64,000 nucleotides of DNA, taken from the NCBI RefSeq assembly GCF_017348835.2, contig NZ_CP072315.1; one strand, written 5' to 3'. The DNA is from Escherichia coli. Its GTDB lineage: Bacteria > Pseudomonadota > Gammaproteobacteria > Enterobacterales > Enterobacteriaceae. Positions 4,228-19,768 of the stretch are shown here, one piece after another (the stretch's first letter is position 1; every line of letters starts with the position of its first letter). Under the pieces are notes generated by a model. That model worked only from the letters and a program-made list of their open reading frames with translations, did not search any database and was not told the origin of the DNA. A program made the position numbers and the translations under genes.

Positions 4228-4621
4228 TTCGATATGGGCATTTACTTATGCTTAAAGCTATAGTATAAAAACAATGAGCTTAAATATCAGCTCCCAAATT
4301 TGAGTAACTTTGCTTAAAGTTACTTTCGCGTTAAGCGTTGATTTAGCCGTGAAAAGCGGCCAGCTTAAACAAGCTGTAAGACACCACCGGCAAAATGTCA
4401 CCTTTGTCGCTGGTGCACTTCCCATGCCTGAAAAAGGCAATCTGAATTTACCAAACCGTAACTAATTTAGCTCCTCCTGGAGCTATTTTTGTTGCGTACT
4501 TCTAATGCCAGATAGTATAAATCAGGCGGTTCATAGCTTACGGGAGATGAATGACAGGCTTTGCCTTCGTGTTGAAACAAAAAATTGTTTCTTCCTTCTT
4601 ACTATATATAGGTGACCCCAA

Positions 4622-5494
4622 ATGTCTAAAAATAAAGCTCGCAGTAAAGCCCTTCATCAAACCTTTAGTGAAATTATTCCAGAGATGGATAAGGCGCTAA
4701 ACAAACAGCTCTTAGAAGTTCTGATGAAATATACAGAACGTGATAATGAACTGATTGTTATTTTGAATGAGGACGGCCCAAATATCATTGAACTTAAGTC
4801 TCTTAAGCCTGTGTCTTTGTTGGCCGAAAAGCTTTCTGCTTATTCAAGCTATTATCATGTGGATGTTGTGGAGCTCGTGGTCAAGAAAATTGATTTCGAA
4901 GGAGCTTATAAGCTTCTTAAAGCTTCCCCAGATGTACCACTTTTTAAAAGCTTAACTGAACTGGATAAATATCTTGTTGAGGAGTTTGAAAAATACGGAT
5001 TAAATTCATTTCTTGACGTGGATAATCTGGATTACTCACTTGAAAAAGCCAGTGAACTCAAAAATGAGCAGTTAATAAATTGGGTTTCGGACATCATTTG
5101 CAAACGTGAAAAATTAACTTTACGTAAGCGTTTTGATGTCGCAGTAAAGGCCCACTACGAAAATGTAGAAAAAATGTATGATACCATTCGTCCGTTAATG
5201 AAAAAACTGGGTTTCCCAGAAGATCTCATGACGCACACCTTTAGTGAGTTAAGCGTTTTTGAAACTAAAGGATGGGACCATGCAATAAAATCGAAAATTG
5301 AGACTCTCGCTAAGCGTGAAACTCAATATTTAGATGATGCGGCTAAAGCAGAGAATCGACGTCTTGTAACAGAGAAGTTGGAGAACTCTTTAGCGATTGC
5401 ACCAACTAAACCAACAAGAAATTGGTTACATATTGCCGGAATTGCCTGTTTGGTAGTCTGCACGTTCATGTATGTAACTAATAAATTTATTTAA
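4622..5494 (+). CDS. Hypothetical protein, helical with C-terminal membrane anchor
   Basis: 290-aa ORF; hydrophobic C-terminus IAGIACLVVCTFMYV; upstream RBS-like stretch. Confidence 0.5.
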   Translation: MSKNKARSKALHQTFSEIIPEMDKALNKQLLEVLMKYTERDNELIVILNEDGPNIIELKSLKPVSLLAEKLSAYSSYYHVDVVELVVKKIDFEGAYKLLKASPDVPLFKSLTELDKYLVEEFEKYGLNSFLDVDNLDYSLEKASELKNEQLINWVSDIICKREKLTLRKRFDVAVKAHYENVEKMYDTIRPLMKKLGFPEDLMTHTFSELSVFETKGWDHAIKSKIETLAKRETQYLDDAAKAENRRLVTEKLENSLAIAPTKPTRNWLHIAGIACLVVCTFMYVTNKFI

Positions 5495-5551
5495 TCCTGT
5501 TAAGGGGGAACCCTAACGGGGCTTCTCTTTGAACAAATCGAGGAGCGGAAA

Positions 5552-5929
5552 ATGTCATATCTTGAATATATCAATGAAGTAAAAGTGTCCGGGATAGTTA
5601 TCAGTGCTGTGGAGAAAAAAATGACTGACCAGAGTATAGGTTTGTTAATAAAGCTCAAAAATAGGATGAAGACAGAAGTTGATGGTGAAATCACTGAGAG
5701 AGAATTTTCAGTTCAAATCAAGGTGTCGCCTGAAATGTATTCAACCTGTTTCACTGGTATAAATCAGGGTGATGAGTTGATGGTCTCCGGTTATATTGTT
5801 GTCGATACTATTATGATTGAAGGGAGAGAACATCCTCTTGACTACATGAGAGTGGTAGCAACAAGTAAGTTGGCTCACATACCTAAACCTCTAAAAGGTT
5901 TTGGACAAAGTAGCTTTAATCAGATCTGA
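5552..5929 (+). CDS. Hypothetical protein (125 aa)
   Basis: ORF with GGAG-type RBS upstream; no motif recognised. Confidence 0.45.
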   Translation: MSYLEYINEVKVSGIVISAVEKKMTDQSIGLLIKLKNRMKTEVDGEITEREFSVQIKVSPEMYSTCFTGINQGDELMVSGYIVVDTIMIEGREHPLDYMRVVATSKLAHIPKPLKGFGQSSFNQI

Positions 5930-5949
5930 CATTAAACCCACCCTAAAGG

Positions 5950-5980
5950 GGAGAAATCCCTTCATGGGATTTCTCCTTTT
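5950..5980 (+). terminator. Intergenic hairpin + U-tract (terminator/attenuator-like)
   Basis: GGAGAAATCCC-ttcat-GGGATTTCTCC then TTTT, immediately followed by GGAG and the ATG at 5990. Confidence 0.55.
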
Positions 5981-5989
5981 GGAGTCCCC

Positions 5990-6967
5990 ATGAAACAAAA
6001 ATTTAGGGCTACTGCAATAAGTAGTAATCAACTTAGTTTTTTTTCTATACTCGATATAGATGAAGATGAAATAACGCAAATAGTTGATTCACCCAAAGAG
6101 CATTTAAATGATGCTTACACGTCCGGATTAAACTTTAAATCAGAAGAAAGTAACATTTCTGAGATAAATTATGATTCTGAAAGGCGTGAAAATCACCTTT
6201 ATGAAAAATCCAAATTACTTAAAAATCAGATTTTGCATACAATTAATTTTGCAGCAGAAACAGATTATCTATATACGGTTGAAGAATATAACCCAGATTT
6301 GGGTGGTCTGGTAATAGAATGGACCCCTGAGGATGTGTATGTTGTTTTTCTATCCGCTATGGAAGAGTCTTTGGAAATCATTAAAGAACTAGTGTTGAGG
6401 AGAAAGTTATTCTTCAAAGATGACAATGGTAATATCACAGTGAATCCACTTTTAGAAGCTGAAACACGGTGGTATATGTCAAAATCATTTGAATACACTT
6501 GTTTATGTCATGGACTTGATGCATGTGAATTTAGAGCGGAATTAAAATCATGGCTCTATTATCATTCGCATCGTTCGATTAGTGAAAACACGAAATTAGC
6601 TGAATGCAGGAATGATGATGAAATCATTTTGCATGATTGCAATGACGATATGGGCTGGGACATCTTCTTTGATCAGGATTATTTAATGTCAGAAAAAAAA
6701 CTGGCTGTTAAATGGACTGACAGGGAAATTATGGATGTTTACATAAAAGCTTTTAAATCCACATTAGAGTTGTTTGACGAGCTTGTTTCATGTGATCTGT
6801 TAACTAAACGAAACGCTTTTGGCAAGTTAGAAATCAATCCAATATTCGAAAATCATTTTGAATGGATCATGTCTGAAGCTTTTGAAATAGTGGGAAATCA
6901 TCTTGGTTATAATGTGCCTCAAATCAGGAAACTGATGGCAACTATTTGCCAAATGAATCTCAAATAA
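5990..6967 (+). CDS. Hypothetical protein (325 aa)
   Basis: Long AT-rich ORF with RBS; no motif recognised. Confidence 0.5.
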   Translation: MKQKFRATAISSNQLSFFSILDIDEDEITQIVDSPKEHLNDAYTSGLNFKSEESNISEINYDSERRENHLYEKSKLLKNQILHTINFAAETDYLYTVEEYNPDLGGLVIEWTPEDVYVVFLSAMEESLEIIKELVLRRKLFFKDDNGNITVNPLLEAETRWYMSKSFEYTCLCHGLDACEFRAELKSWLYYHSHRSISENTKLAECRNDDEIILHDCNDDMGWDIFFDQDYLMSEKKLAVKWTDREIMDVYIKAFKSTLELFDELVSCDLLTKRNAFGKLEINPIFENHFEWIMSEAFEIVGNHLGYNVPQIRKLMATICQMNLK

Positions 6968-7024
6968 AATGCCACTGGCAAACATCTGCCAGAGGGCGGT
7001 GTTTGCATTTTACCGGAGTTAAAA

Positions 7025-8083
7025 ATGTCTAATGCCGCTATGAAGTTAAATGAAACATCTTCTGATGCTTATGAAAAATTAGAAGCTCTTCTTTCCCCGG
7101 ATGTTATAAAGTTAAAACATTATGTGGATAAAGGTGAGTATCTTTTAGTTCTAGCAAAGGACCTTTTTGGTATTCCAGAAATGGATCCAAAGATGGCTGT
7201 GCCTGTTTTCAAAACTAAAACCTCGTATCGAGCTCCGCTGAACAAAGACTACATACCAAATCCCCGAATACTTGAACAAGTGGTTAAACTGCTTATCAGT
7301 CCGGATATAGATTTAAGTGTGTGTCTTAAAGGTGAGTCCGGTTCTGGCAAGACTGAAATGGTAATGTACATTAGCCACATGATGAATTGGCCGCTGACAA
7401 TTAAGCAGATCAACAGCAATATTCGAGTTGATGAGCTTGAAGGTGAGCGCAGTCTTAATGGTGGTAATACAGGTTTTGTACACAGCGATTTGGTAACGGG
7501 ATTTCGTAATGGTCACCTCATTCTTCTGGATGAAGTGGACAAAATCGATCCTGATACGGCAGCAAAACTTCACATGCCCATTGAACGTAAGCCCTGGTCA
7601 CTCAGTGCTAATGGTGGTGAGGTTATAACTGCTAATGGCTACACGCGATTTATTGGTACTGCAAACACAAACATGAGTGGAGGCGCTCGCCGGTTCGTTT
7701 CTTCTCAACGTCAAGATGCAGCTTTTATAAAGCGGTTCTTGATAGTTGAAATGGAGAAGCCCGACAAAGTTGCTTTAACCAATGTGCTTACTAAACGATA
7801 TAGCTCTTTGCCTTTTCAGGTCATTGAGAAGTTCGTAAGAGTAGCGATTGCAGTAAATGACTCTGGTACAGAAGACAGTGTGATGGATATTCGTCAATTA
7901 GTAGCTTGGGTTGGCACGTCGATGACGTTAAAAACCTTTAGTCTTCTTGACACTTTCAAAATAGCTTTTGCTTCTGCTTTACCTTTACATGTGGTCGATC
8001 TTGTTCTTCAAGCTATAGATCTTTCTCTTGGCGAAGACAAGGATAAATCGCTGGAGTATTTCACAGCAAAAAAGTCGAGTTAG
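7025..8083 (+). CDS. AAA+ ATPase, MoxR/CobS-like
   Basis: Walker A GESGSGKT, Walker B HLILLDEVDK; size (~350 aa) matches CobS/MoxR-type ATPases. Confidence 0.75.
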   Translation: MSNAAMKLNETSSDAYEKLEALLSPDVIKLKHYVDKGEYLLVLAKDLFGIPEMDPKMAVPVFKTKTSYRAPLNKDYIPNPRILEQVVKLLISPDIDLSVCLKGESGSGKTEMVMYISHMMNWPLTIKQINSNIRVDELEGERSLNGGNTGFVHSDLVTGFRNGHLILLDEVDKIDPDTAAKLHMPIERKPWSLSANGGEVITANGYTRFIGTANTNMSGGARRFVSSQRQDAAFIKRFLIVEMEKPDKVALTNVLTKRYSSLPFQVIEKFVRVAIAVNDSGTEDSVMDIRQLVAWVGTSMTLKTFSLLDTFKIAFASALPLHVVDLVLQAIDLSLGEDKDKSLEYFTAKKSS

Positions 8084-8418
8084 ATGGGATTTGTTATGAA
8101 ACCTCTGATATTTGTATCTCAGAGTTATCCCATCTTGAATTTAGTGCGTTTTTAAGTACGGATGGTGCTGCTACCATTGCTATAGCAAAAAACGGAACTA
8201 ATTTTACTGGACTTATGCAACTGAATAACGACTATTCTTTATTGTTTTATCATGATGGTAAAATAAATATGGAAGGTCTGATTAAACAAATGGAATTAAA
8301 AGGTTATATGTATCAGGGAGCAATGGGCAATGATGATGTTGTTGCTGAGTTTCCCGGTATTCTTTTAATTTCACCAGAGAAGCTTTAATATCAACCCTAT
8401 CGGGAAATCTTTCCCGTT

Positions 8419-8441
8419 GGGGAGGGTTTCCCCTTTTTTTT
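8419..8441 (+). terminator. Intergenic hairpin + U-tract directly upstream of an RBS
   Basis: GGGGA-gggtt-TCCCC followed by an 8-T run, then GGAG and ATG at 8452; an additional CGGGAAA/TTTCCCG hairpin at 8401-8416. Confidence 0.5.
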
Positions 8442-8451
8442 GGAGAAACCC

Positions 8452-9579
8452 ATGACTTTAAATACTTCAATGCTTAACAAAGTATCTGCAAAACAAATCT
8501 CTGAGAATTTTGCAAAATCATATCCAGATTTACTGGAAGGTGCAGTTATAACAAAAATTGAAATAAGTGGCTGTCAAGGATCGCGTCGAACCGATAAAAT
8601 CGATTTGTCTTATGATGGAGATGATATTACGGATCAAAAAAGCGTATCTAAAAGCGAAGTACGCTGGATTGACATAAAAGCCCTTAGCTTCAAAAGTACG
8701 ATTACCAGCAGAATATCAACTCTTTGCTCACGCTTGTGCATCCGCTATAGCAATATGTGGATTTTACCAGTATCCAGTATGGAAGAGTTTCTGGAAGGGG
8801 CCCAAGAGATTGAACGAGAGTTTCAGGCAGGTATTCAAAACGTTGTAGACAATTATGAGATGCATATTGAGGCTGAAAAAAATAGAAGCCCAAGAATGTC
8901 TTCTTTGATTGATCAGTTGAAATTAACTAAAGATGATTTCATAAAATCCTTTAGATTTAATATTGCTCACTTTATTCCTTTTACGCCTATTAGCGTTGAA
9001 GGTGATGAAACCCAGGACTACTATCAGGAACAATTGATAACAGATCTGGCAGAAGAAGCAATGAAGGTTTATGAAAAAATTAGCAAAAATAACAATTTGC
9101 GCTCAAGTACTATTGACCGACTGAAGCAAATGCAAAATAAGATCATTAGCTTCATGTTTATACATAAAGAGGCGGCAGTACTTGCAGAAGCTATAAAACA
9201 CATAATGAATAATTTACCTAAAGGTGCCATTTCTGAACCTCGCGACGTTGCGGTGTTACAGCAGTGGTTTTATTTCATGAGTGATGCTTCAATGTTAAAG
9301 CGTATTATTTCAGGAGAGCAAAAGGTTACTGACTGGTTGGAATCTATTACCAGATCATTTAATCAAAGCTCACAAACAGAACCGAACGCGCTACAGAACA
9401 CAGGTATTGAAGCTATTTTAGATTCAACAAATGTGTTCCAGGTTGAACCTGTCGTAGAGAACGATATAAATAACAGCACGTTTTCAAACACTGATCCTGT
9501 AGCTGAACCTGAGAAATCAGTTTCGCAACAGGAAGACAATGTTGAAAATGGTTTTGATATCGAGCTCAAAGGCTGGTAA
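8452..9579 (+). CDS. Hypothetical protein (375 aa)
   Basis: Track ORF starts at TTG 8440; ATG at 8452 has a GGAG RBS. No motif recognised. Confidence 0.5.
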   Translation: MTLNTSMLNKVSAKQISENFAKSYPDLLEGAVITKIEISGCQGSRRTDKIDLSYDGDDITDQKSVSKSEVRWIDIKALSFKSTITSRISTLCSRLCIRYSNMWILPVSSMEEFLEGAQEIEREFQAGIQNVVDNYEMHIEAEKNRSPRMSSLIDQLKLTKDDFIKSFRFNIAHFIPFTPISVEGDETQDYYQEQLITDLAEEAMKVYEKISKNNNLRSSTIDRLKQMQNKIISFMFIHKEAAVLAEAIKHIMNNLPKGAISEPRDVAVLQQWFYFMSDASMLKRIISGEQKVTDWLESITRSFNQSSQTEPNALQNTGIEAILDSTNVFQVEPVVENDINNSTFSNTDPVAEPEKSVSQQEDNVENGFDIELKGW

Positions 9580-9599
9580 CTGTTTGCTTTATTAAAAAC

Positions 9600-9641
9600 C
9601 CCAGATGGGTACTTCACCATCTGGGTGAGTACCCCTTTTTT
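9600..9641 (+). terminator. Intergenic hairpin + U-tract
   Basis: CCCAGATGG-(8 nt)-CCATCTGGG stem, then ACCCC and TTTTTT, 16 nt before the ATG at 9657. Confidence 0.55.
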
Positions 9642-9656
9642 ATAAAGAGGTATTCT

Positions 9657-11669
9657 ATGAAATTAGATCTTAAATCATCACCGCGCCATATTAAGCGTTT
9701 ACAGAATATAGCAAAAGTCATTAGCGGCTTAGGCGATGTAAGAGTTGTAATAGACGACAATACCAAAGGACCGTATTTTGATCCTGTAAATAAAGTTTGT
9801 GTTTTACCAAACGGCGATTATAGCGATGATGACTTTGTCAGTCTGATTGAAGGTTTTACCTGTCATGAAGCTGGTCATGGTCGCTATACCGACAGCGAGG
9901 TTTACAGTGACGCCTTTAATAGTGTTCTCAAGTCATCTGAAGGGTTTACACGCTTCGATGACGGAATGAATGCAGAGTTTGAGAGCCTCGCTGAGAAACG
10001 TAAAGCTTATAGCAGGGCAAAACGTCTTACCGGGCTTATAAATCTGTTCGATGATGTACAGATGGAAGAGAAGGTTGGTAACGATTATCCGGATGCAAAG
10101 CGGCGGCTTGCAGCCACTTACGCACTGATGGTTAAAGCCGGAAGGATGACTCCTGATATATCTTCTCGTCCGGAAAATCCTGTCCTATTTATTGAGTGGT
10201 ATCTGCTTAACTCATTGCGAGTAAAAGTCCTTCAGCAGGCAGGTCACAAAGAAACACTCGATCCGTTTTTTGACTATGCCCAAAAGATACTTTCTCCAGT
10301 AATTTCTGATGTTGAGGAAATTTTTCATGATGCTCTTGGTTGTGAAAATACTCAGGGCTGTGAATCCCTTGCTCGTAAGACCCTGGCTCTTTTAGAGAGA
10401 CTGCGGGATGAGGCAAGGGAACAACAGCAGCAGACAGAGCAGGAGGAGCAGGAGGCATATGATGAATCCGAGACCGATACCGATACCGATACCGAATCAG
10501 AAGATAAATCGCTTGAGTCGACTGATAGTCGTGAGGATGATTCTGAGGACGATAGTGAAGGTCAGGCAGATACTTCCGATAACTCTGATCTTGCTCAAGA
10601 GGGATGTTCTGAGCCTTCAGAACTTGCTGAAGATAACGAGGGAAATAATGAACCCACCGGTGGCAATCCCACAGGTGATAACATTATTGAAGACGATACT
10701 GATGCGATTAACCCTTCCGAGAGTGAATCAGATGAAGCCAGTTCGACTAACGTTGAAGATGAAAGTAACTTTTCATCGGCTCAATGGGAGATACTGGCAG
10801 ATTTGTTGGATGCCTTTCTTGGCAGTGATGAGGATAGCGAAGATTATCACGATGCTTTGGCTAAAGAGATTGAAGGTATTGCATCAAAAGTATCCGATGA
10901 CGTGAAAGCCGAATTCGGTGCTTCTGAATGGGATATCCCTGATCTCCTTATCGATTTGAATGTTTACAATGAGGCTTTGTCTCTGAGTCATTCAATCGGT
11001 AGCGACTTGTCTGTTTTACAGCAGGTTAAAATGCGTGGCCGAAACAAAACTCATGAGCGTGGAATTACCTTCGATGGAAATCGATTAATTCTGTCACCAA
11101 TGGGAGTTCGTGATGTCTTCAGAGCTCAAAGCGAATCTAAAAATAGAGGGCATGTTGGCCTCGTATTAGTTCGTGATATTTCAGCGTCAATGGCTAATGA
11201 TGAAAGATATATTCATGCCATTAAGTCAGATCTTGCTTTATCGATGGCCGCTGAAAGTTTGTCAAAAATGCATGTCTCCAATATAGTCTTTCCCTTCAAG
11301 GAAAGTGAATTTGAGATTATCAAAACGTTTGATCAAAGCGTTGAGGAATCTCTATCGAAATTCACTCTTGGATGTAAGGGTTATTATACCCCTACGGGAT
11401 CGGCTTTAATGGCAGCTGTTGATCTGTTACTTGACAGCCAATTCGATAGGAAAATAATTTTTCTTATAACTGATGGTTATCCGAATAAATCGGAATTTAC
11501 TATCGGCGAAGTTATGGAAAAGGCTAAATGTAATGGAATAGAAATCGTTGGTGTTGGTATTAAGACTGATGAAATAATTGGTTTTGAAACGGACACTTTC
11601 GTAACAGTTGATGATACTTCTTTATTGTCTATTGAAGTCAGTAAGCTAGTTCATCAAATACTTTCTTAA
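9657..11669 (+). CDS. vWA-domain protein, CobT-like, with acidic linker and N-terminal HExxH motif
   Basis: C-terminal vWA with MIDAS DISAS and ITDG; central highly acidic D/E/S/T-rich segment; HEAGH at residues 70-74. Architecture resembles CobT, the usual partner of CobS-like ATPases. Confidence 0.7.
   Translation: MKLDLKSSPRHIKRLQNIAKVISGLGDVRVVIDDNTKGPYFDPVNKVCVLPNGDYSDDDFVSLIEGFTCHEAGHGRYTDSEVYSDAFNSVLKSSEGFTRFDDGMNAEFESLAEKRKAYSRAKRLTGLINLFDDVQMEEKVGNDYPDAKRRLAATYALMVKAGRMTPDISSRPENPVLFIEWYLLNSLRVKVLQQAGHKETLDPFFDYAQKILSPVISDVEEIFHDALGCENTQGCESLARKTLALLERLRDEAREQQQQTEQEEQEAYDESETDTDTDTESEDKSLESTDSREDDSEDDSEGQADTSDNSDLAQEGCSEPSELAEDNEGNNEPTGGNPTGDNIIEDDTDAINPSESESDEASSTNVEDESNFSSAQWEILADLLDAFLGSDEDSEDYHDALAKEIEGIASKVSDDVKAEFGASEWDIPDLLIDLNVYNEALSLSHSIGSDLSVLQQVKMRGRNKTHERGITFDGNRLILSPMGVRDVFRAQSESKNRGHVGLVLVRDISASMANDERYIHAIKSDLALSMAAESLSKMHVSNIVFPFKESEFEIIKTFDQSVEESLSKFTLGCKGYYTPTGSALMAAVDLLLDSQFDRKIIFLITDGYPNKSEFTIGEVMEKAKCNGIEIVGVGIKTDEIIGFETDTFVTVDDTSLLSIEVSKLVHQILS
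10473..10493 (+). repeat. In-frame hexanucleotide tandem repeat (ACCGAT) x3.5 encoding TDTDTDT
   Basis: accgataccgataccgatacc read directly in the acidic linker of the vWA gene. Confidence 0.6.
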
Positions 11670-11685
11670 TAAACTCTACCCAATC

Positions 11686-11712
11686 GGGGCAAAAGGCCCC
11701 GGTGGGTCTTTT
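11686..11712 (+). terminator. Intergenic hairpin + U-tract
   Basis: GGGGC-aaaag-GCCCC then GGTGGGTCTTTTT, downstream of the 11669 stop. Confidence 0.5.
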
Positions 11713-11740
11713 TGCTCCATGAAGGAATAAGGAGCAAAAT

Positions 11741-11962
11741 ATGACTCAGATAAAAACTTACCGTGTAGAACATGAAAAAGTCGGTGCGATGCATAAAGTC
11801 CGTATTTTCGGACGTGTTGGTGAAGTTATAAGCAATGATAGCCCTCAGGAAAGAATCTTCCGCGAAGTCACTATAGCGGAGGGTAATAGCCAGCAGGCTG
11901 CGTTACTTGTAGATAACTACATACAGTGTCTTGAGAATAATGGCTTCACGACTGAAGCATAA
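11741..11962 (+). CDS. Hypothetical small protein (73 aa)
   Basis: ORF with AAGGAG-like RBS (aataaggagcaaaatATG) and its own downstream terminator. Confidence 0.45.
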   Translation: MTQIKTYRVEHEKVGAMHKVRIFGRVGEVISNDSPQERIFREVTIAEGNSQQAALLVDNYIQCLENNGFTTEA

Positions 11963-11967
11963 ATGTT

Positions 11968-11991
11968 GAGGGCCCCCGGGCCCTCTTTCTT
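11968..11991 (+). terminator. Intrinsic terminator
   Basis: GAGGGCCC-cc-GGGCCCTC perfect stem followed by TTTCTT. Confidence 0.55.
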
Positions 11992-12075
11992 AAATTCTGC
12001 GTTGTGGGTTTCTCCCTGTCTTCTGCACCGCAGAAGGCATTGAGAAACTCACAATGCCAGATAAGAGAGATCATC

Positions 12076-13308: not shown

Positions 13309-13339
13309 CAACGATAACTCCCCCGCTTTTTGCGGGGGG

Positions 13340-13387
13340 GGTTATCTTATCAATATTATATTTTAAAATTGTATTGATAAGATAACC
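13340..13387. repeat. Perfect 16-bp inverted repeat with 16-nt AT-only spacer
   Basis: GGTTATCTTATCAATA - ttatattttaaaattg - TATTGATAAGATAACC, directly after a CCCCCGC/GCGGGGG hairpin (13320-13338) downstream of the primase-like gene. Confidence 0.75.
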
Positions 13388-13578
13388 GCTTTCCTTCGTG
13401 ATAATTACCTGCCTTTAAGGTCTTTTCACGGCTGAGATGCTTGCTCAGTTAAATAAATGTGCGGTACTACTGGCTATGGTCGGTTGTATGACATGGTTAT
13501 TCCATAAACTATTAAAACCCATAACGGGAGTATTACCGTTATGGTGATGCTCGTCGTTTTACATCGGAGAGCATTTTA

Positions 13579-14100
13579 ATGAATTTTCAAATTAACGAAG
13601 TTTTTAATAAATTTGCTGCTGTTATAAAATCGCGCATCGTCAATGAACCATCGTCATGCTATTTGCTGCATGATAATGAGATAGATATAACGATTTTGAA
13701 ACATAGCATATTAGAAAATGACAGAAACCTGTTGTACGTAGTTCGTCCTTCAGGAACGTGTTTGTTGCGTTGTGACAAATATTTCTATCCGAAATATTAT
13801 CTTCGTTGCCGTGGAGATTATAAGTCATTCATATATGTCCATCTTGATCTACATAGTGGTGAAGCTAAAGAAATCACATGGGAGCAAGCAGACGATATGC
13901 TGTCTAGTCCAGGAAAACCCCCATTAAAAGGGAATCTTGGACGATTTGAGTATATAAAAGTTGTGGTTGAGGACCTTCGTATTCGAGGTTACGCTGATTA
14001 TCTTCCTGCGTATAATCTTGATGACCTTCGCCGTTTTGCCTTACAGGACGACCGCCCATCCCTTGTCAGATACATTGACAATGTCATGGCAACGGTCTGA
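13579..14100 (+). CDS. Hypothetical protein (173 aa)
   Basis: ORF with RBS (cggagagcattttaATG); no motif recognised. Confidence 0.45.
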   Translation: MNFQINEVFNKFAAVIKSRIVNEPSSCYLLHDNEIDITILKHSILENDRNLLYVVRPSGTCLLRCDKYFYPKYYLRCRGDYKSFIYVHLDLHSGEAKEITWEQADDMLSSPGKPPLKGNLGRFEYIKVVVEDLRIRGYADYLPAYNLDDLRRFALQDDRPSLVRYIDNVMATV

Positions 14101-14178
14101 TTGATTGCTAATTGATTTACATATTTTCCCTGATGGCCAACCTGCATCAGGGAGGCCTCAATAACGAATGGAGGCTGT

Positions 14179-15057
14179 ATGAAGTTAGCTACGGACCTGG
14201 TAAAAGCTATTTTGATTAGAAATGGCGTTGAACCAGTAAATATAAGCGAATCATCTAAGTTATCTTTGAAACAACCACTGACAGAACTTAAATTCAGTTT
14301 ATATTTGCGAACTGAGCATTTATCTCACTTCCTACCCGGTTATGTTTATTCTATAAAAGAATGTCCACTGTCATATGACATCGGGATCGAAATTCAGAAA
14401 ATCTTCGAAAGTTTACATTTGTTAAACGAAGAATTTGAATCCCTCGGTTTTGTTTCTGTATGGATAGAAATGCATCAAAGCATTTTTGAACAAAGTCGGT
14501 TTAAGAAAAGTAACTTTACTTTTCGGGAGGAAGAGGTCGAGCTTGCTAAAGGGCTTGTTTGTTCTCACAATTCACAAATAAGTAATGCGGCTTATTTCTG
14601 GCTTCAGCACTTTGAGGAGTTTATGATTTATGTTCGTAATAAGCTTATCGACCTCTTTCGAGAGGCCTATGACCTGATCCTTGGAATGCAGCAAGTATTT
14701 TTCATTCGGGAAAAGGAAGAGCTGTTGAAAACTATAAGTTATGGCGATGAGCTGTATGAGGTGAAATTCATGGCGGCTGAGCTTTACTCTATCGAACAGA
14801 ACTTAAAGTGTTCTGAATCGATAAGTACAAAATCTCAAGCTTCGGCATATATTAACCGCATCCGTGAGTTTGTGCGTTCGGGGTGGAGGCAGGGCTATAT
14901 AGTCTGCCATCATAAGCGAAGTAATCAAATTTCATCATTGTCATTACCGATGTACTTGAAAGATACGTCAGGCCGAAGTGCTCGAAAGCGAGTAAAACGT
15001 CTTATATCTTCTACAGTTTGTGGTAGAAATAAAGATTTAGGTCTTACAGATTTTTAA
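14179..15057 (+). CDS. Hypothetical protein, member 1 of a tandem array of ~300-aa genes
   Basis: 292 aa; same size class and N-terminal pattern as the next four genes; own RBS (ggaggctgtATG). Confidence 0.5.
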   Translation: MKLATDLVKAILIRNGVEPVNISESSKLSLKQPLTELKFSLYLRTEHLSHFLPGYVYSIKECPLSYDIGIEIQKIFESLHLLNEEFESLGFVSVWIEMHQSIFEQSRFKKSNFTFREEEVELAKGLVCSHNSQISNAAYFWLQHFEEFMIYVRNKLIDLFREAYDLILGMQQVFFIREKEELLKTISYGDELYEVKFMAAELYSIEQNLKCSESISTKSQASAYINRIREFVRSGWRQGYIVCHHKRSNQISSLSLPMYLKDTSGRSARKRVKRLISSTVCGRNKDLGLTDF

Positions 15058-15075
15058 TTAAATTATACCCATGTG

Positions 15076-15111
15076 GGGATCACACCCCATATGGGAGTGA
15101 TCCCTTTTTTT
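15076..15111 (+). terminator. Intrinsic terminator between array genes 1 and 2
   Basis: GGGATCAC-(13 nt)-GTGATCCC stem followed by a 7-T run, then GAGAGG RBS and ATG at 15128. Confidence 0.6.
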
Positions 15112-15127
15112 ATTGAGAGAGGATCAC

Positions 15128-16063
15128 ATGAAAATTATCGAAAAAATCATTAATGCCTTTTTGGTTGTTCAACATAAAAAAATACAGGTTAAAAACATTA
15201 CATTTTTAGACAATGGGCAGGGCATGTTCTCTGGTATGTCTTTTGATGCTGATGTTTCACTGGAGTTTATGTATGAATCAGCAAAAGCATATAGTTCTTG
15301 TTTCTGTGATATTCCCTTTCCAGGTTTTGAAGATGCAAATCTGGAGGAAATTACGAAATTTCAATTAGATGCTTTGAAGCAAAGAAAGAATCATTCTTTC
15401 TTTGTTAACCATTTGAGGTTTCCTATAGTTTTAAGGGAAGGGTGCAAAATCGAAAGAGGAGAAGTCTATTCAATTTCGAATTGCACTTATAATAAAGAAA
15501 GATTGCAGTATCTTTTTTCTCAGGATATTTACGGTAAGTTGTATAATTCCTTAGAGAAAGAATTAAGCTCGTTTTTCTCATTTATCAATGTTGAGGTGCA
15601 CGAGTTGTTAAAAGATGCTGTATGCTTTGCATTAAAAATCCTGAATAAGATATCTTTGGATACACCTGAAAGACTTATTAAAGCTTTTAATTATCGTGAC
15701 TGGTATTGTAGTTACGATGTTGAGCTTTTTAGGAAAGGCTTACCTGGTCATATTCTGGAAGAGCTCATTGCTCCAGATATCTTACTTTCAGACCTTAACG
15801 GTTGTAGAAAAATACTTAGAAATGCAAAACGAGTTCTAAATGGACATACACAAACCAATTGTGTTTATATTAAATATGAATGGTGGTTGGGGCCTGTTGA
15901 TACCTCACACTCAGCTAAGTTGATGTCTGACAAAGAAATTAATAACCGAAGTGACTTGAAGAATTTTTCAAAGGTCTTTTTCAAAGAGTGTTTAAGTTCT
16001 GGTAAGTCGGAATATGAAAACCATCTTAGTGAAAAAGAACATGCGCTTCGCTATAATTATTAA
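15128..16063 (+). CDS. Hypothetical protein, array member 2
   Basis: Track start 15113 is TTG; ATG at 15128 has a GAGAGG RBS. 311 aa. Confidence 0.5.
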   Translation: MKIIEKIINAFLVVQHKKIQVKNITFLDNGQGMFSGMSFDADVSLEFMYESAKAYSSCFCDIPFPGFEDANLEEITKFQLDALKQRKNHSFFVNHLRFPIVLREGCKIERGEVYSISNCTYNKERLQYLFSQDIYGKLYNSLEKELSSFFSFINVEVHELLKDAVCFALKILNKISLDTPERLIKAFNYRDWYCSYDVELFRKGLPGHILEELIAPDILLSDLNGCRKILRNAKRVLNGHTQTNCVYIKYEWWLGPVDTSHSAKLMSDKEINNRSDLKNFSKVFFKECLSSGKSEYENHLSEKEHALRYNY

Positions 16064-16084
16064 TTAAAATTATTTTCTCCCATA

Positions 16085-16111
16085 GGGATTTCTCCCTATG
16101 GGAGAAATCCC
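16085..16111 (+). other. Perfect 12-bp stem hairpin between array genes 2 and 3
   Basis: GGGATTTCTCCC-tat-GGGAGAAATCCC; no clear U-tract after it. Confidence 0.6.
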
Positions 16112-16131
16112 TCTATTAAGAGGGTATTGAA

Positions 16132-17052
16132 ATGAATGCTATACAAAAGTTAGTTGAATCTATTCTTGTTAAAATGGGTTTTGTTGGCGCTGTAGTGGAA
16201 AATATATATTTGGATTCAAAACCATTTCGGCATATTCGATTTGTGGCTGATATTCCAGTAATATCTTTTCTACCTCATTTGGTGAAATATCTTAAGGGTG
16301 CAGACCATCTTTACAGTGGTAACGATGATTTGCATCCTCTTTTCATTTATTTTTCCGAAGCGGCTACATTAAAAGCAGGTCCTGTAAATCTCGCGAACTT
16401 TCGTTTTGAAGTTTCTATAGCTTCAACTCATTTACGACTGGTCTCAGAGCAGCCTGATTTGCTTTTCAAAGGATTTAACCGGGATAATCTAGAATACGTT
16501 TATTACCGCTCAGATTTGGCCTCTAAGGATCTTATACTAGGCCTTGTTGAACACGGTTCTCCTTTCATAAAACATCTACATGGACTTATACAAAAGCGAA
16601 TTTTAAACGAGTTCTCTCTGATTTTTTCTGTTCTTGAAAAGATTTTAGAAAGCGCGAAGCCACAAATTCTTGCTTGCTTCCATAGTGTTGATTATGAAAT
16701 GAACGTAAAAATAATAGCCGAAGCTATACCTGAAACTGTATCTAATCAGATAGTCACATCTGATTATATAGTTAATTCTATATCAGATGCGGACAAGTTT
16801 ATAAATCATGTTCGTCGCTATTTAGCAGGCAGGGTAATGAAGAGGCGGATATACGCTGAATTAGATGTTTGTGAAGAAACATCAAGTATTTCACTAGTGA
16901 ACTTAGGATGCTTTACGTCTCCTCTGCTCGTTACGGAATATCAAATGTTTAAGCCACACTCTTCAGGGTTATATCGAAAAGCTATAAACAACTCCTTAAA
17001 ACAGTTCAAACCAGAAATGCATGTACCTTCTGAAGAACTCTTTTATAATTAA
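16132..17052 (+). CDS. Hypothetical protein, array member 3
   Basis: 306 aa ORF; RBS agagggtattgaaATG. Confidence 0.5.
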   Translation: MNAIQKLVESILVKMGFVGAVVENIYLDSKPFRHIRFVADIPVISFLPHLVKYLKGADHLYSGNDDLHPLFIYFSEAATLKAGPVNLANFRFEVSIASTHLRLVSEQPDLLFKGFNRDNLEYVYYRSDLASKDLILGLVEHGSPFIKHLHGLIQKRILNEFSLIFSVLEKILESAKPQILACFHSVDYEMNVKIIAEAIPETVSNQIVTSDYIVNSISDADKFINHVRRYLAGRVMKRRIYAELDVCEETSSISLVNLGCFTSPLLVTEYQMFKPHSSGLYRKAINNSLKQFKPEMHVPSEELFYN

Positions 17053-17062
17053 TCTAACCCAT

Positions 17063-17100
17063 CCGGGAACCTGCTTCCCGGTGGGAAGCACTTCCTTTTT
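17063..17100 (+). terminator. Double hairpin + U-tract between array genes 3 and 4
   Basis: CCGGGAA-cctgc-TTCCCGG followed by GGAAG-ca-CTTCC and TTTTT; then GAGGTAGTGTA RBS region and ATG at 17119. Confidence 0.55.
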
Positions 17101-17118
17101 AGTCATGAGGTAGTGTAA

Positions 17119-18057
17119 ATGTTTAAAGAATCTGACCACGTGGAATTTGTTAGTGCCTTTCTTTATCAAAATTTAGGCCTTAATGTTTCCGCTGACGATA
17201 TAACCGTTCAATTATCTGATACTTCGTTCGACAAAGTAACCTTTGATTACGATGTAGATATCGATAATTTAAATTGTATGTTGGATCTCTACATATCTGA
17301 GCTAATAAAGCACAACGCATCTTACTCCGATTCTATTCTTTTGAAACAAAAAATAATTTATTTTCTTGGAGTATTTAAGAATTTCGGATTTTTTACGTTT
17401 GATATTCGCGGATATAGTAATACTTTAAGCCCAGTTAAAGTTATTGATATTGTTTCAATGATTATTAATGACTGTGAAGAGTTATCTAAAGCTAATTCTT
17501 CTACTGATGCTATAAGAAATCTTTATCTCGATAAAATGAAGGTGGATGGGAAAGTGTTAGTTGCGAAATTTGCACTTAAACAGTTTTTTCATTCCGACTT
17601 TGGTGACTTTATCTCATTTGTCGAGAAAAGAATTACAGATTGTCTTAATGAAACTTTAAGGATTATCAAAGCTGTTGAACATGGCTTTGTACGTGTAGGG
17701 CAGCATAAGATTAATCGCCGTATTAATGATGACTTAAAGTTATGCATTGATTTCAATACTGATGATTATCCGGCAAATATGCCAGATATATATATTAAGT
17801 TTAACGATACATTTGATGGGAACGGGGCGTTATATTGTGACAATGATGCCCTCATATCCCTCTATACCGATGTTGCTTCAATTATCAATGTGCCGGTGAT
17901 GATGGAAGTAAGATTGATCAATAAAAGAGGGCGTGTTGTCTGTGATTCTTCGCATTCAACTTACGTATCTCTCGAAAGTAATGACCGATACAGAGTAACT
18001 GATCGCACATTACTAATAACTGAAGCTTTTGACGATTTTCGTAACGCGTCTCAATGA
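17119..18057 (+). CDS. Hypothetical protein, array member 4 (clear paralogue of member 5)
   Basis: Blocks shared with the next gene: KMKVDGKVLVAKFALKQFFHSDFGDFISFVEKRIT vs LMQVDGQVMIARFALQQFWDTHFIGLITFVSESIT, and HSTYVSLESNDRYRVTDR vs HTVYVSELTGGRIKIHDR. Confidence 0.6.
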   Translation: MFKESDHVEFVSAFLYQNLGLNVSADDITVQLSDTSFDKVTFDYDVDIDNLNCMLDLYISELIKHNASYSDSILLKQKIIYFLGVFKNFGFFTFDIRGYSNTLSPVKVIDIVSMIINDCEELSKANSSTDAIRNLYLDKMKVDGKVLVAKFALKQFFHSDFGDFISFVEKRITDCLNETLRIIKAVEHGFVRVGQHKINRRINDDLKLCIDFNTDDYPANMPDIYIKFNDTFDGNGALYCDNDALISLYTDVASIINVPVMMEVRLINKRGRVVCDSSHSTYVSLESNDRYRVTDRTLLITEAFDDFRNASQ

Positions 18058-18176
18058 TCCTTTTGCTTCAGTCCAAAAAAGTAACTTTGGTTGGCTGAAG
18101 ACACTTGTCTATGACAATGTAAAATCTGTCGCTGGCATCTTCTTTTAGCTTAACCAAATTTTTATCTAACCCAGTG

Positions 18177-18191
18177 GGGAAGTCGCTTCCC
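18177..18191 (+). other. Hairpin in 5' region of array gene 5 (copy of the gene-4 upstream element)
   Basis: GGGAAG-tcg-CTTCCC; followed by the same GAGGTAGTGTA-N-ATG leader seen upstream of gene 4. Confidence 0.5.
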
Positions 18192-18228
18192 TTCTGGGGC
18201 ACTTCCTCTCAAATTCGAGGTAGTGTAT

Positions 18229-19185
18229 ATGACACATTCATCTGATGATAAAAACTATGTCCGAGCAGTTCTGAGTTATCTTGGCATAGATTTTGATGAG
18301 GCGGATATAGTATTAAGTGTTTGCCATTGTCAAAGTGACGAGCTTTCTTTTACCTGTAATATCAAAGCTATTGAACTCAAGAATGTTGTTGATTTATATG
18401 TCGATAGTATCTCTGAGAATGAAATAGAAGCTTTAAACAGAGAATCTTTAAAATCGCGACTCTGTTACTTTCTTGAGGTGTTTGACGCAGTCTCTGGTCA
18501 GTACCTTGAAATTTCAGGAAAACACTTTGCAACTAGTCGTTTTGAATATGATGATGTTTGTAGTGAAGTTCTTAGCATGTCTAATGATGTTTCTCAGTCG
18601 AAAGGTTATGACCGGGATGAATATAACAGACTGATGCAGGTTGATGGTCAGGTTATGATTGCCCGTTTTGCTTTGCAACAGTTCTGGGATACTCATTTTA
18701 TTGGACTAATAACATTTGTATCTGAGTCTATAACATCGAGCCTCTATAAAGCTTATGAAACTTTTAGTGATATTAGTTTGGCTTGCTATAAACTGAGTGA
18801 ATATTCTTATTCACGCTCTATCAACAGTGAATTGACCCTTAATATTTCACTTAAAGAAAATGACTTCTGTGAGGACCTATCTGATTGCTATATGGAAGAT
18901 GAGGCTTTACCTTCTGGTAGGGTAATTTCTCGACGCAACAATGACTCCATAATAAGTATTTATGAGAGCTATGCTGCGGCTTCTTATATTCCGATGATTG
19001 CATCTTTGGAAGTCGTTGATGAATACGGCGAAGTGGTTACTGACCTCTGCCATACCGTTTATGTTTCAGAGTTAACCGGTGGGCGGATTAAAATCCACGA
19101 CCGTAATGACTTAGTATCTGAAGTTTTCGATAACCTAAGAAATTTAAATCTTGCAGTTGGAGATTCAGTTTCACAAGCTGCTTGA
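18229..19185 (+). CDS. Hypothetical protein, array member 5
   Basis: Track start 18223 is GTG; ATG at 18229 has a GAGGT RBS. Paralogue of 17119-18057. Confidence 0.6.
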   Translation: MTHSSDDKNYVRAVLSYLGIDFDEADIVLSVCHCQSDELSFTCNIKAIELKNVVDLYVDSISENEIEALNRESLKSRLCYFLEVFDAVSGQYLEISGKHFATSRFEYDDVCSEVLSMSNDVSQSKGYDRDEYNRLMQVDGQVMIARFALQQFWDTHFIGLITFVSESITSSLYKAYETFSDISLACYKLSEYSYSRSINSELTLNISLKENDFCEDLSDCYMEDEALPSGRVISRRNNDSIISIYESYAAASYIPMIASLEVVDEYGEVVTDLCHTVYVSELTGGRIKIHDRNDLVSEVFDNLRNLNLAVGDSVSQAA

Positions 19186-19224
19186 TTCTTTCCCTGATTT
19201 TGATTTTTTCTCACATACTCTTAT

Positions 19225-19249
19225 GGCACGGTTTCCGTGCCTTTTTTTT
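19225..19249 (+). terminator. Intrinsic terminator closing the paralogue array
   Basis: GGCACGG-ttt-CCGTGCC followed by an 8-T run. Confidence 0.7.
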
Positions 19250-19448
19250 GCCTCGCTTACAAGCGTCTACTCCTCTTCTACCTATCCCACCTTACATCAC
19301 CACTTAAAATCTATCTTTCTAATTCCATTATCCTTTTCGTAGCCTCTAATGCTCTGGTATGAACATACTCTTTAAACTCAAAAAAGTGCTATTAACGAAA
19401 AAAAATCCCTAAAGAGATTTGTATACTGTTCTCAACCAAGGAGAGCTC

Positions 19449-19724
19449 ATGAATGAACTAAAATCCAAAAACGAGAACAGTACCAAAAGCAACTTTCCCC
19501 CGGTTGATAATCAGTTTTGCTTTTACCATGTTGATTTCAGCATAGAACGACTACTTTCTACGGCCGAGGATCTCCAGCTTGAGTACATCTTCCAGAAACC
19601 TGGAAGTGAAGTAAGAAAGGATTTGGTTGAGCGATTCGAACGTGGAGAGCGCTTTGTTACAGCTTCACACTGTGACAATTTCTGTGAAATCCTTGGTTGT
19701 CAAGGCCATCAGGAAAATGCATAA
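19449..19724 (+). CDS. Hypothetical protein (first gene of an eight-gene operon)
   Basis: Track start 19419 is TTG; ATG at 19449 is preceded by AAGGAGAG. Confidence 0.45.
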   Translation: MNELKSKNENSTKSNFPPVDNQFCFYHVDFSIERLLSTAEDLQLEYIFQKPGSEVRKDLVERFERGERFVTASHCDNFCEILGCQGHQENA

Positions 19725-19768
19725 ACCCATAAACCTACATTTCCACTTTTAAGGATGTTCACTAAAGA

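Follow-up and report, generated by a model that had tools for sequence, protein, structure and literature searches.

The 64,000-nucleotide stretch of DNA analysed here (the window) is IncHI2 plasmid backbone and belongs to a resistance plasmid of 232 kb. Directly downstream of trhI it carries a gene cluster of about 14 kb, the proteins of which are either orphans or of AAA_5, DUF3150, VWA and toprim types, and the gene boundaries of which are rich in hairpins (Table 1). The cluster is preceded by a promoter-like site and a 5′ leader with a weak, conserved hairpin; this leader is nearly base-for-base identical in five lineages, including Klebsiella-type plasmids, where protein identity is about 40%. 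As for an ops element for RfaH (GGCGGTAGnnTG), only GGCGGT is present, at 4525, and matches across the window are at chance level. The first gene of the cluster (4622), encoding a tail-anchored membrane protein, has no hairpin module in front of it. The gene-by-gene arrangement had been called phage-like, a view that finds no support: the DNA is plasmid backbone, a search of 50,697 phage records gave no match to it, and its proteins have no PHROG match.

Table 1. Leaders and transcription signals of the cluster (z, stop-to-ATG folding z-score; CM, covariance model)
Feature	Coordinates	Strand	Elements	Scores and remarks
Promoter-like site TTGCGT-18-TATAAA and conserved cluster 5′ leader	4492..4565	+	upstream of gene 4622	
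I1, weak family member	5496..5554	+	HP1 5496-5520; HP2 5521-5546; SD GAGGAG 5540-5545; ATG 5552	z -4.0; HP1 -13.0, HP2 -7.9 kcal/mol; CM 13.6 bits, E 0.31; no X:X′ match of the specific kind
I2	5941..5992	+	long hairpin 5948-5976 then TTTT; small SD hairpin 5973-5984; ATG 5990	terminator-like hairpin is the MFE; outside CM training set, still recognised (19.4 bits, E 0.008)
I3, degenerate	6971..7027	+	hairpin 6971-6997; weak second hairpin; SD 7015-7018; ATG 7025	z -1.8; CM 11.3 bits; kept in HI1 lineages
I5	8395..8454	+	HP1 8395-8422; B 8402-8432 then T8; HP2 8424-8451; SD 8442-8446; ATG 8452	z -4.4; B is the MFE on the nascent prefix, -21.5 kcal/mol; cognate X:X′ rank 0/30
I6	9600..9659	+	HP1 9600-9625; B 9607-9634 then T6; HP2 9627-9655; SD 9646-9650; ATG 9657	z -4.6; prefix HP1 -17.7 vs B -17.1 kcal/mol; cognate X:X′ rank 0/31
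I7	11678..11743	+	HP1 11678-11707 then CTTTTT; HP2 11710-11739; SD 11730-11734; ATG 11741	z -5.7; X GGGGCAAAAG mimic of X″ GGAGCAAAA; rank 0/30
I8, leader of a different kind	11968..12078	+	terminator-like hairpin 11968-11985 (+TTTCTT); 61-nt hairpin 11998-12058; toprim gene ATG 12076	z -9.2; long hairpin -40.6 kcal/mol, kept with compensatory changes
Strong bidirectional terminator	13313..13346	.		closes first transcription unit
I9	13519..13581	+	HP1 13519-13544; B 13526-13552; HP2 13546-13575; SD 13566-13571; ATG 13579	z -5.7; CM 40.5 bits; 210 nt past upstream stop codon
I10	14128..14181	+	HP1 14128-14152; HP2 14154-14176; SD 14170-14174; ATG 14179; no T-run	z -2.3; cognate X:X′ rank 0/32; CM 18.9 bits
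I11, best copy	15068..15130	+	HP1 15068-15095; B 15076-15104 then T7; HP2 15097-15127; SD 15117-15122; ATG 15128	z -7.5; CM 54.6 bits; triple covariation X, X′, X″
I12	16074..16134	+	HP1 16074-16107; B 16085-16111, no T-run; HP2 16109-16124 incl. SD; ATG 16132	z -6.0; HP1 -25.2 kcal/mol
I13	17058..17121	+	HP1 17058-17085; B 17066-17095 then T5; HP2 17088-17116; SD 17107-17110; ATG 17119	z -4.2
I14	18170..18231	+	HP1 18170-18198; B 18178-18206, no T-run; HP2 18199-18226; SD 18217-18220; ATG 18229	z -5.7; 112 nt past upstream stop codon
Canonical terminator GGCACGG TTT CCGTGCC + T8	19225..19249	+		cluster end

The original prediction had placed GC-rich hairpins, several of them with common GGGA..TCCC-type arms, at eight positions close to the next start codon. 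Such hairpins are present at all eight, well above chance (the long hairpin of I2, HP1 of I7, and B of I5, I6 and I11–I14). Their 3′ ends lie 13-33 nt upstream of the ATG and abut the Shine-Dalgarno sequence (SD), and they have arms in common. The hairpins form a family, 30 copies of which align over 74 columns. Five more leaders, those before genes 5552, 7025, 12076, 13579 and 14179, are also structured. The folding energies bear this out: when stop-to-ATG regions were compared with 200 dinucleotide shuffles each, ten of the 13 leaders gave z-scores of -4.0 to -9.2, with none of 200 shuffles equally stable, and the remaining three gave -1.8 to -2.4, compared with -0.15 to +0.64 for three control intergenic regions immediately downstream. 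Among the 68 annotated window genes scored by their 75-nt leaders, z was at or below -2.85 for 14 of the 15 genes spanning 5552-18229, and a single gene outside this span reached -3.26. A scan for terminator-like sites likewise returned 27, against 11.6 ± 4.1 expected.

Two mutually exclusive folds are available to these leaders, are conserved among related plasmids and are confined to the cluster. Each leader is about 57-76 nt long and contains, in order, seg1 (ACCCW..), segment X (GGG..), CCC, GGG, a C/U-rich anti-SD segment X′, after which a U-run is common, and X″, which is the SD region itself. In the default fold A all segments are paired within two hairpins: HP1, with a CCC...GGG base, and HP2, in which X′ pairs with X″ and the SD, located in the 3′ arm, is buried by -8 to -14 kcal/mol. 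Segment X, which is located in the top and loop of HP1, is a copy of the SD region and can pair with X′ instead. This X:X′ pairing, exclusive with both HP1 and HP2, is the GGGA..TCCC hairpin of fold B; it leaves seg1 and the SD unpaired and takes the form of an intrinsic terminator where a U-run follows. Of the 37 instances examined in four lineages, 35 have fold A as their minimum free energy (MFE) structure, and in the full leader this fold lies 8-14 kcal/mol below fold B, the hairpin of which ranges from -12.7 to -21.5 kcal/mol. HP2 amounts to -7.6 to -13.8 kcal/mol in ten leaders, and the predicted pairing of the SD is 66-98%. Since the SDs are canonical, with a spacing to the ATG of 4-8 nt, the genes need a mechanism for opening them. 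I1, I2 and I3 fit this three-segment logic poorly.

An SD-sequestering hairpin is the classic design of an RNA thermometer, and temperature controls both the conjugation of IncHI plasmids and many genes of R27 (PMC7366339). Nevertheless, it is extremely improbable that the leaders account for the temperature-sensitive biology of IncHI plasmids: the predicted SD pairing was constant from 15 to 50 °C in all eight modules tested, and both the stability of HP2, far above that of known thermometers, and the energy gap between the folds argue against it.

All three helices are kept, with compensatory changes, in IncHI1, IncHI2 and Klebsiella-type plasmids, although the proteins are just 40-60% identical. 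In the 30-copy alignment HP1 is 80.6% paired versus 69.1 ± 1.5 in shuffles, with 47 double-change cells versus 21 ± 3.7 (0/500 shuffles for both); slid controls are 33-62% paired. The X:X′ complementarity is specific to each module (mean -10.3 kcal/mol for cognate and -6.2 kcal/mol for non-cognate pairs). When X′ was permuted among the modules within a plasmid, the observed value was reached in none of 20000 permutations for HI2, HI1B and HI1A, and in 169 of 20000 for the five Klebsiella-type copies. One X′ column of I11 covaries with its partners in both X (CG to UA) and X″ (GC to AU); across five lineages fold B of this leader is 100% and fold A 96.7% paired. In I5, X′ and X″ change together from GGGTTTC/GAAACCC to GGTTTTC/GAAAACC. 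With a covariance model, 10-12 copies are recovered from the cluster and 9-12 from relatives, including I9 orthologs in L002 and L003 that were outside its training set, and none from the remaining ~218 kb of plasmid sequence (the rest of the window and another 168 kb). Neither this search nor leader folding z-scores detected modules downstream of the terminator that ends the cluster. Rfam 15 yielded chance-level matches only, far under gathering scores. A dispersed repeat of REP/BIME or MITE type was considered and rejected: the copies are not near-identical, having in common just short C3/G3 tracts and the architecture, and none lies elsewhere on the plasmid.

The hairpins could in principle act as DNA, as operators, cruciforms, single-strand initiation sites or ssDNA structures in conjugative transfer. 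The replicon is indeed conjugative, and two CCC-N4-GGG units are spaced about 21 bp centre to centre. However, folding is 2.2 kcal/mol more favourable for the sense than for the antisense strand (29/44, p = 4.5e-4), pointing to an RNA-level element. G-U pairing is common, with 12 of 30 copies using it at one HP1 position, the pairing includes the SD and stops 0-7 nt short of each ATG, and oriT, mobI and mobH are some 110 kb distant. Helix sequences differ among the copies, so there is no common operator. A role at the DNA level is therefore very improbable.

The T-runs proposed to follow the hairpins are there only in part: they are found at 8433, 9635, 11708, 15105 and 17096, but not at 5977 (four Ts), 16112 or 18207. 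Defined as at least five Ts within 8 nt 3′ of the stem, T-runs occur at seven leaders, those above and 11986 (I8) and 13553 (I9), and are absent from I2, I12 and I14; in I1, I3 and I10 a B-type hairpin is undefined. On the nascent prefix no other structure is more stable than the terminator-like fold at just two positions, 5948 (I2) and 8402 (I5), in addition to the plain terminators at 11678 and 11968. In I9 and I11–I14, HP1, which is also made before B, is more stable by 1.9-7.5 kcal/mol (3-7.5 for I11–I14), a comparison of stability and not of kinetics. In close relatives the T7 of I11 becomes TTTATTTAT or TTATAAAT, and the T6 of I6 becomes TTTATTAAT, being degenerate in HI1 and L011. T-runs have thus been gained and lost between close lineages, and, judged from sequence, SD sequestration is the constant feature of the leaders and termination an optional add-on. 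Control after transcription initiation at each gene boundary, as the original prediction implied, still follows, although hairpin plus T-run is just one of two mutually exclusive folds.

The leaders might simply tune expression without any switching: partial terminators and protective 3′ or 5′ stem-loops would set stoichiometry and stability, as in selective RNA processing and stabilisation, and SD hairpins would simply keep the expression of costly backbone genes low. Elsewhere, operon stoichiometry is known to be set by stem-loops between genes and by terminators inside operons (PMC4423207, PMC10311766, PMC9045158). The seven hairpins with T-runs, the AU-rich spacers flanking stable hairpins (a typical RNase E context) and the AT-rich, H-NS-type DNA, which favours low expression, all agree with such a role. 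We nonetheless consider static tuning fairly unlikely. It leaves unexplained why X, a loop in fold A, is complementary to X′ in every lineage and why three mutually exclusive helices are conserved; moreover, the T-run is not conserved, and most nascent transcripts favour HP1 over the terminator fold. Stabilising or processing roles for the hairpins, which had also been suggested, are possible. None of HP1, HP2 and B is longer than 15 bp, versus about 20 bp or more for RNase III sites of the phage T7 early-region kind; the separate hairpin at 11998-12058 is the sole one in the leaders that is long enough.

The reading that we tentatively prefer, at somewhat short of even confidence, is that the leaders form a family acting in cis on the mRNA, with one for each cistron, and work as a ribosome-gated relay or attenuator, the trigger and consequences of which we infer. 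The naked transcript would fold 5′ to 3′ into fold A; we propose that RNA polymerase therefore reads through and that the downstream gene is translationally silent. Occlusion of seg1, most likely by a ribosome completing the upstream cistron, would cause the leader to refold to B and open the downstream SD, and translation would be handed from gene to gene. A ribosome close behind the polymerase would let B form co-transcriptionally, leading to attenuation in the copies with a U-run. Masking of seg1 alone makes B the MFE structure, with the SD open, in I5, I6, I9, I12 and I13, and produces a tie in I11. A realistic ribosome footprint (stop +9 to +12 nt) is enough in silico to flip just I5 and I13 (the latter with a mask of +12 nt); I11 and I12 flip with a mask of stop +18 nt, and I6 and I10 with no such mask. 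The gap between stop codon and HP1 is 0-11 nt in most copies, 20-36 nt in I6, I10, I12 (HI1) and I5 (Klebsiella type), and over 100 nt in I9 and I14; because of this variation the module is considered anchored to the downstream gene and not to the upstream stop. Among the copies inspected, no upstream ORF runs into HP1. Nor is there a conserved small leader ORF, the nearest stops being those of full-length upstream genes or of trivial ORFs of 0-19 codons.

The position of I9 and I14, far from upstream stops, would fit a dedicated trans-acting regulator that reads HP1 (ACCC...GGG) or seg1 and toggles all leaders together. This could be a plasmid or host RNA-binding protein, a helicase, a chaperone or a small RNA, and the cluster would be its post-transcriptional regulon. 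The sufficiency of seg1 masking in silico agrees with this, as does the exclusive presence of the family in the cluster within the whole plasmid. So does the CCC/GGG/CCC/GGG series, whose sequence and orientation do not vary among 25-29 of the 30 aligned copies although pairing alone should matter. The fixed tracts, however, can be explained without a protein by the chain of complementarity to a purine-rich SD together with common descent, and no candidate is apparent among the cluster proteins, the module-less first gene encoding a membrane protein. On balance such a regulator seems rather unlikely. A family found only in the cluster, with CCC/GGG in fixed orientation, tells against the ribosome-gated reading in that it would also suit such a factor.

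Several known systems resemble parts of these leaders. In translational attenuation of ermC and cat, covering of segment 1 allows segments 2 and 3 to pair, which frees the SD. The leaders share with it the four-segment chain, the alternative pairing and a default fold that hides the SD of the regulated gene. They differ in having no short leader peptide, stalling codons or drug (the 'leader' is a full-length upstream gene), in their 10-12 serial repeats and in a segment 2 that explicitly copies the SD region. In the repY-repZ and repBA leaders, which control replication of IncI-alpha, IncB and IncL/M plasmids, translation is activated once upstream translation terminates, when the loop of an upstream hairpin pairs with the 5′ arm of the hairpin holding the RBS. 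These systems are likewise plasmid-borne, with the RBS inside a hairpin and upstream-hairpin sequence pairing with the 5′ side of the latter, but they rely on a pseudoknot together with an antisense RNA and serve one gene, whereas here a dozen genes are concerned and an antisense RNA is not known. A pseudoknot in our leaders is unlikely, being sterically disfavoured by a 1-nt linker across an 11-bp stem.

As in trp and pyrBI attenuators, antiterminator and terminator are exclusive, a U-run follows the terminator and ribosome position is the natural input. Here, however, the U-run is labile and dispensable, there is no leader peptide, a third helix sequesters the SD, and the elements lie between cistrons instead of at the operon head. 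A base-paired downstream RBS is also typical of RNA-unfolding coupling (rpmI-rplT, phage f1 VII-IX, MS2 coat-lysis/replicase), in which upstream translation relieves RBS pairing over tens of nucleotides, and across +52 nt in rpmI-rplT (PMC12548453). There, the inhibitory helix includes upstream coding sequence, whereas here both hairpins are intergenic, opening would need the SD-mimic relay and some copies are far from any upstream stop. Stable hairpins also mark successive gene boundaries of long operons such as Clostridium cip-cel and ABC operons, where they lead to partial termination or to differences in stability (PMC4423207, PMC10311766, PMC9045158); those are single hairpins without a conserved alternative pairing to the next SD.

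In kind, then, the leaders are of the attenuator type, and what would be new is their gene-by-gene repetition and the SD mimic. Nearly every gene in this cluster of unknown function is preceded by a predicted refoldable, SD-hiding element of about 65 bases. It is conceivable, if still doubtful, that they constitute a previously undescribed class of serially reiterated riboregulators, each an SD/anti-SD/SD-mimic switch with an optional built-in terminator. If so, each cistron of the cluster would be contingent on a common input, be it a ribosome coming off the preceding cistron (a 'ribosome relay') or a trans factor specific to the cluster. The device is peculiar to the IncHI plasmid family, throughout which it is conserved. 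Genes 17119 and 18229 are paralogs, and their modules, I13 and I14, have flanks in common.

The 15-kb region begins directly after the conjugative helicase gene trhI and matches, at 100% identity, the backbone of IncHI2 plasmids (~230 kb) from E. coli, Salmonella and Enterobacter. The entire window corresponds to NZ_CP084901 34112-98111 and differs from it by one SNP, so RefSeq gene coordinates can be used as window coordinates. The 15 genes of the region, all in the same orientation, encode an AAA_5 ATPase, a DUF3150 protein, a VWA protein, a toprim/DUF7146 protein and eleven orphans; 11 of the 15 proteins matched no Pfam family, and a search of genome contigs with the VWA protein returned one locus. 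In the plasmid papers that we checked the cluster appears merely as a 'hypothetical protein region', and the R27 and IncHI2 plasmid transcriptome papers hold no nucleotide-level data for it. Its G+C content is 35-42% (window 4000-20000) versus ~50% in the neighbouring ter region (28000-46000), and the cluster is likely an H-NS/Hha-silenced block. The idea that its gene-by-gene organization is phage-like found no support: megablast against 50,697 phage records found nothing, and PHROG hits were likewise absent.

When whole intergenic regions of the cluster are folded, the minimum-energy structure consists of two hairpins (fold A). HP1 is closed at its base by CCC...GGG pairing, and its inner helix is variable. 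In HP2, located 3' of HP1, a C/U-rich 5' arm (X'), often followed by a T-run, pairs with the Shine-Dalgarno (SD) region (X''), the pairing reaching to 0-7 nt upstream of the ATG. The energy of HP2 is -7.6 to -13.8 kcal/mol in ten leaders; the SDs are canonical and lie 4-8 nt from the ATG. In the alternative fold B, the top of the HP1 5' arm together with the loop (X) pairs with X', which is incompatible with HP1 as well as HP2 and frees the SD. X is effectively a copy of the SD region: among the leaders, numbered I1-I14 along the cluster, X is GGGGATCAC and X'' is GGATCAC in I11, and the two are GGGGCAAAAG and GGAGCAAAA in I7. The ground state is fold A, with a margin of 8-14 kcal/mol. If only the 5' segment of the leader (seg1) is masked in silico, I5, I6, I9, I12 and I13 fold best as B and their SD is open; I11 gives a tie. 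Pairing of the HP1 loop with X' as an H-type pseudoknot was judged, by inference, sterically implausible, with a 1-nt linker across an 11-bp stem. Folding of the sense strand is on average 2.2 kcal/mol better than that of the antisense strand, and G-U pairs occur frequently, both of which indicate a structure at the RNA level; the same strand asymmetry and G-U pairs led us to reject a DNA operator or cruciform. Sequence inspection also eliminated attC sites, as GTTAAGG...CCCTAAC is present in I1 only, and its order and consensus are wrong.

The original prediction had described a recurring hairpin, U-tract and ribosome-binding site before successive start codons, and as an observation it stands. 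A GC-rich hairpin is present at every predicted position, ending 13-33 nt upstream of the next ATG. In dinucleotide-preserving shuffles (n=200), 10 of 13 stop-to-ATG intervals had z-scores of -4.0 to -9.2, with 0/200 shuffles as stable, and by the same test three intergenic regions just past the cluster gave z ~0. When the 75-nt leaders of all the window's 68 annotated genes were compared, strong structure was limited to the genes from 5552 to 18229. The predicted 'GGGA..TCCC' hairpin does exist, but as the alternative fold B and not as the minimum-energy structure of the leader.

The suspicion that the hairpins form a repeat family was borne out by alignment. Thirty copies from nine different gene junctions, uniform in length (57-76 nt), align over 74 columns with invariant CCC, GGG, CCC and GGG tracts. 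On this alignment HP1 is 80.6% paired versus 69.1 +/- 1.5 in shuffles and 33-62% in slid controls, and has 47 double-change cells versus 21 in shuffles. A covariance model made from the 30 copies found in the window only the cluster leaders, including I2 (E 0.008), which was absent from training. It detected 9-12 sense-strand copies per related plasmid locus, including lineages and junctions outside training, and had no match in an Aeromonas MOBH plasmid or in the remaining 168 kb of the reference plasmid. Recent tandem duplication was rejected as the source of this recurrence, since the ~300-aa proteins are only 14-27% identical and modules also stand before unrelated genes (DUF3150, VWA, small ORFs). 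I13 and I14 probably result from an ancient co-duplication. The tandem ~300-aa paralogs themselves had no match in Pfam or PHROGs.

We compared syntenic clusters from an IncHI1B-type plasmid (L002), an R27-like IncHI1A plasmid (L003), Klebsiella/Raoultella IncHI1B(pNDM-MAR)-type plasmids (L005, L008, L009), two further HI2-like lineages (L011, L012) and metagenomic variants (L028, L036, L040, L060), whose proteins share 40-88% identity with those encoded in the window. The HP1+HP2 fold is present in 35 of 37 leaders tabulated for four lineages, and also in the leaders of L011, L012 and the metagenomic variants. Across five lineages, I11 is 96.7% paired in fold A and 100% in fold B, and a single X' column shows covariation in each fold, C-G becoming U-A opposite X and G-C becoming A-U opposite X''. 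Fold B is not countable on the family alignment, in which MAFFT does not keep X' in register, and permutation tests were used instead. The mean energy of the X:X' duplex is -10.3 kcal/mol for cognate versus -6.2 kcal/mol for non-cognate pairs. When X' was permuted among modules of one plasmid, the observed value was reached in 0/20000 permutations each in HI2 (the window lineage), HI1B and HI1A, and in 169/20000 for the five Klebsiella-type copies. The cognate energies and permutations show that a C/G-rich composition does not account for the complementarity of X and X'. The two folds are conserved and mutually exclusive. That the leaders are static tuning or stability elements seems to us unlikely.

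The terminator reading of the hairpins holds in part. At least 5 T within 8 nt after the stem are found in seven leaders; I10, I12 and I14 have no T-run. On the nascent transcript fold B is most stable for I2 and I5 only, with a near tie in I6, whereas in I9 and I11-I14 HP1 has an advantage over B of 1.9-7.5 kcal/mol and is also the earlier to form. I7 and I8 each consist of a simple hairpin with a U-run behind it. The T-runs are labile, those of at least 5 being gained and lost between close lineages. The conserved core is SD sequestration with three-way complementarity, to which only some copies add termination.

What might switch the folds? In most copies a gap of 0-11 nt separates the upstream stop codon from HP1, pointing to a ribosome terminating the upstream cistron as the natural agent. 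This would create a gene-to-gene translational relay and, were the ribosome just behind the polymerase, attenuation at U-runs as well. Attenuators of the ermC/trp type are one precedent; another, for RNA-unfolding coupling, is rpmI-rplT at +52 nt (PMC12548453). Several observations speak against a ribosome trigger: with a mask of realistic footprint (+9 to +12 nt) only I5 and I13 flip, several copies are 20-36 nt or >100 nt from the upstream stop, and I1 to I3 fit the scheme poorly. In addition, a dedicated trans-acting factor reading the leaders, an explanation that we find doubtful, would fit just as well with a family that is restricted to one cluster and has its CCC/GGG tracts in fixed orientation. 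The relay/attenuator reading is put forward tentatively, as quite possible though short of probable. An RNA thermometer was excluded at equilibrium, with no temperature effect; RfaH ops antitermination was rejected, there being no ops element; and no conserved small ORFs indicative of leader peptides were found. The product of the first cluster gene was considered as an RNA-binding regulator and rejected: it carries a membrane anchor at its C terminus, probably as a tail-anchored protein, and no homolog was informative.

A leader that hides the SD or forms a terminator by alternative folding is of a known kind. This family, however, appears undescribed, given that Rfam 15 holds no matching family (an E-value scan gave noise only) and that neither literature text searches nor the R27/IncHI2 papers examined provided a description. 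It combines an SD mimic with a terminator that is optional, occurs as 10-12 copies in series and is confined to a single conserved cluster of IncHI plasmids. These plasmids have a major part in carrying multidrug, mcr-1 and carbapenemase resistance, and the cluster downstream of trhI is conserved backbone. Leaders gating almost every cluster gene would offer a first handle on when and how it is expressed, and a defined, mutable target for testing its role. For RNA biology, they would be a natural case of one switch design reused a dozen times serially within operons, with a bearing on how polarity, stoichiometry and the coupling of transcription to translation are managed in horizontally acquired DNA that is AT-rich and silenced by H-NS. 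At ~65 nt the leader is also a small building block for engineering translational coupling or insulation.

Additional features of the cluster and its surroundings (window coordinates unless stated otherwise)
Position	Feature	Remarks
4492-4565	Promoter-like TTGCGT-18-TATAAA, then 5' leader GGCGGTTCATAGCTTACGGGAGATGAATGACAGGCTTTGCC	Leader almost base-for-base conserved, even in Klebsiella-type plasmids with ~40% protein identity; like first half of RfaH ops element, yet no match to one
4622-5494	First cluster gene	Sole gene without module; product has hydrophobic C-terminal tail, kept in all lineages
9577-9655	Extra in-frame stop	After stop at 9579; in HP2 loop, 2 nt before SD
9600-9625, 13519-13544, 16074-16107	Hairpins also scoring as antisense terminators (minus strand)	A-rich spacer before HP1 gives T-rich tail after same hairpin on minus strand
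11998-12058	61-nt near-perfect hairpin, -40.6 kcal/mol	Upstream of or overlapping toprim/DUF7146 gene start; kept with compensatory changes in all lineages
13313-13346	Bidirectional terminator	Runs into palindrome
13341-13386	46-bp palindrome (TTATCTTATCAATA...TATTGATAAGATAA)	
13488-13515	Promoter-like ATGACA-16-TATTAA	After palindrome; predicted start site within seg1 of I9
14098-14127	Second in-frame TGA	12 nt after TGA stop of gene ending at 14100; 12 nt before HP1
14179-19185	Five consecutive ~300-aa orphan proteins	Ancient tandem paralog family; pairwise identity 14-27%; genes at 17119 and 18229 27% identical (E 3e-38); genes at 15128 and 16132 weakly related
25313-25525	Plasmid Hha gene (hha)	Near cluster
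L006 (NZ_CP118989) 9469-17912	AAA-DUF3150-VWA core	Distantly related Aeromonas MOBH plasmid

The minus-strand terminators could curb antisense transcription in AT-rich DNA, while the extra in-frame stops would be relevant only given stop-codon read-through. The long hairpin near the toprim/DUF7146 gene, whose annotated start varies by lineage (GTG 12004, ATG 12076 or an ATG within the 3' arm), is of sufficient length for an RNase III substrate. The segment 13313-13515 may represent the regulated start of a second transcription unit. The Aeromonas plasmid has a different intergenic device, in which tiny GCCC-YYYG-GGC hairpins abut AAGGA Shine-Dalgarno sequences and the spacers are longer and highly structured.
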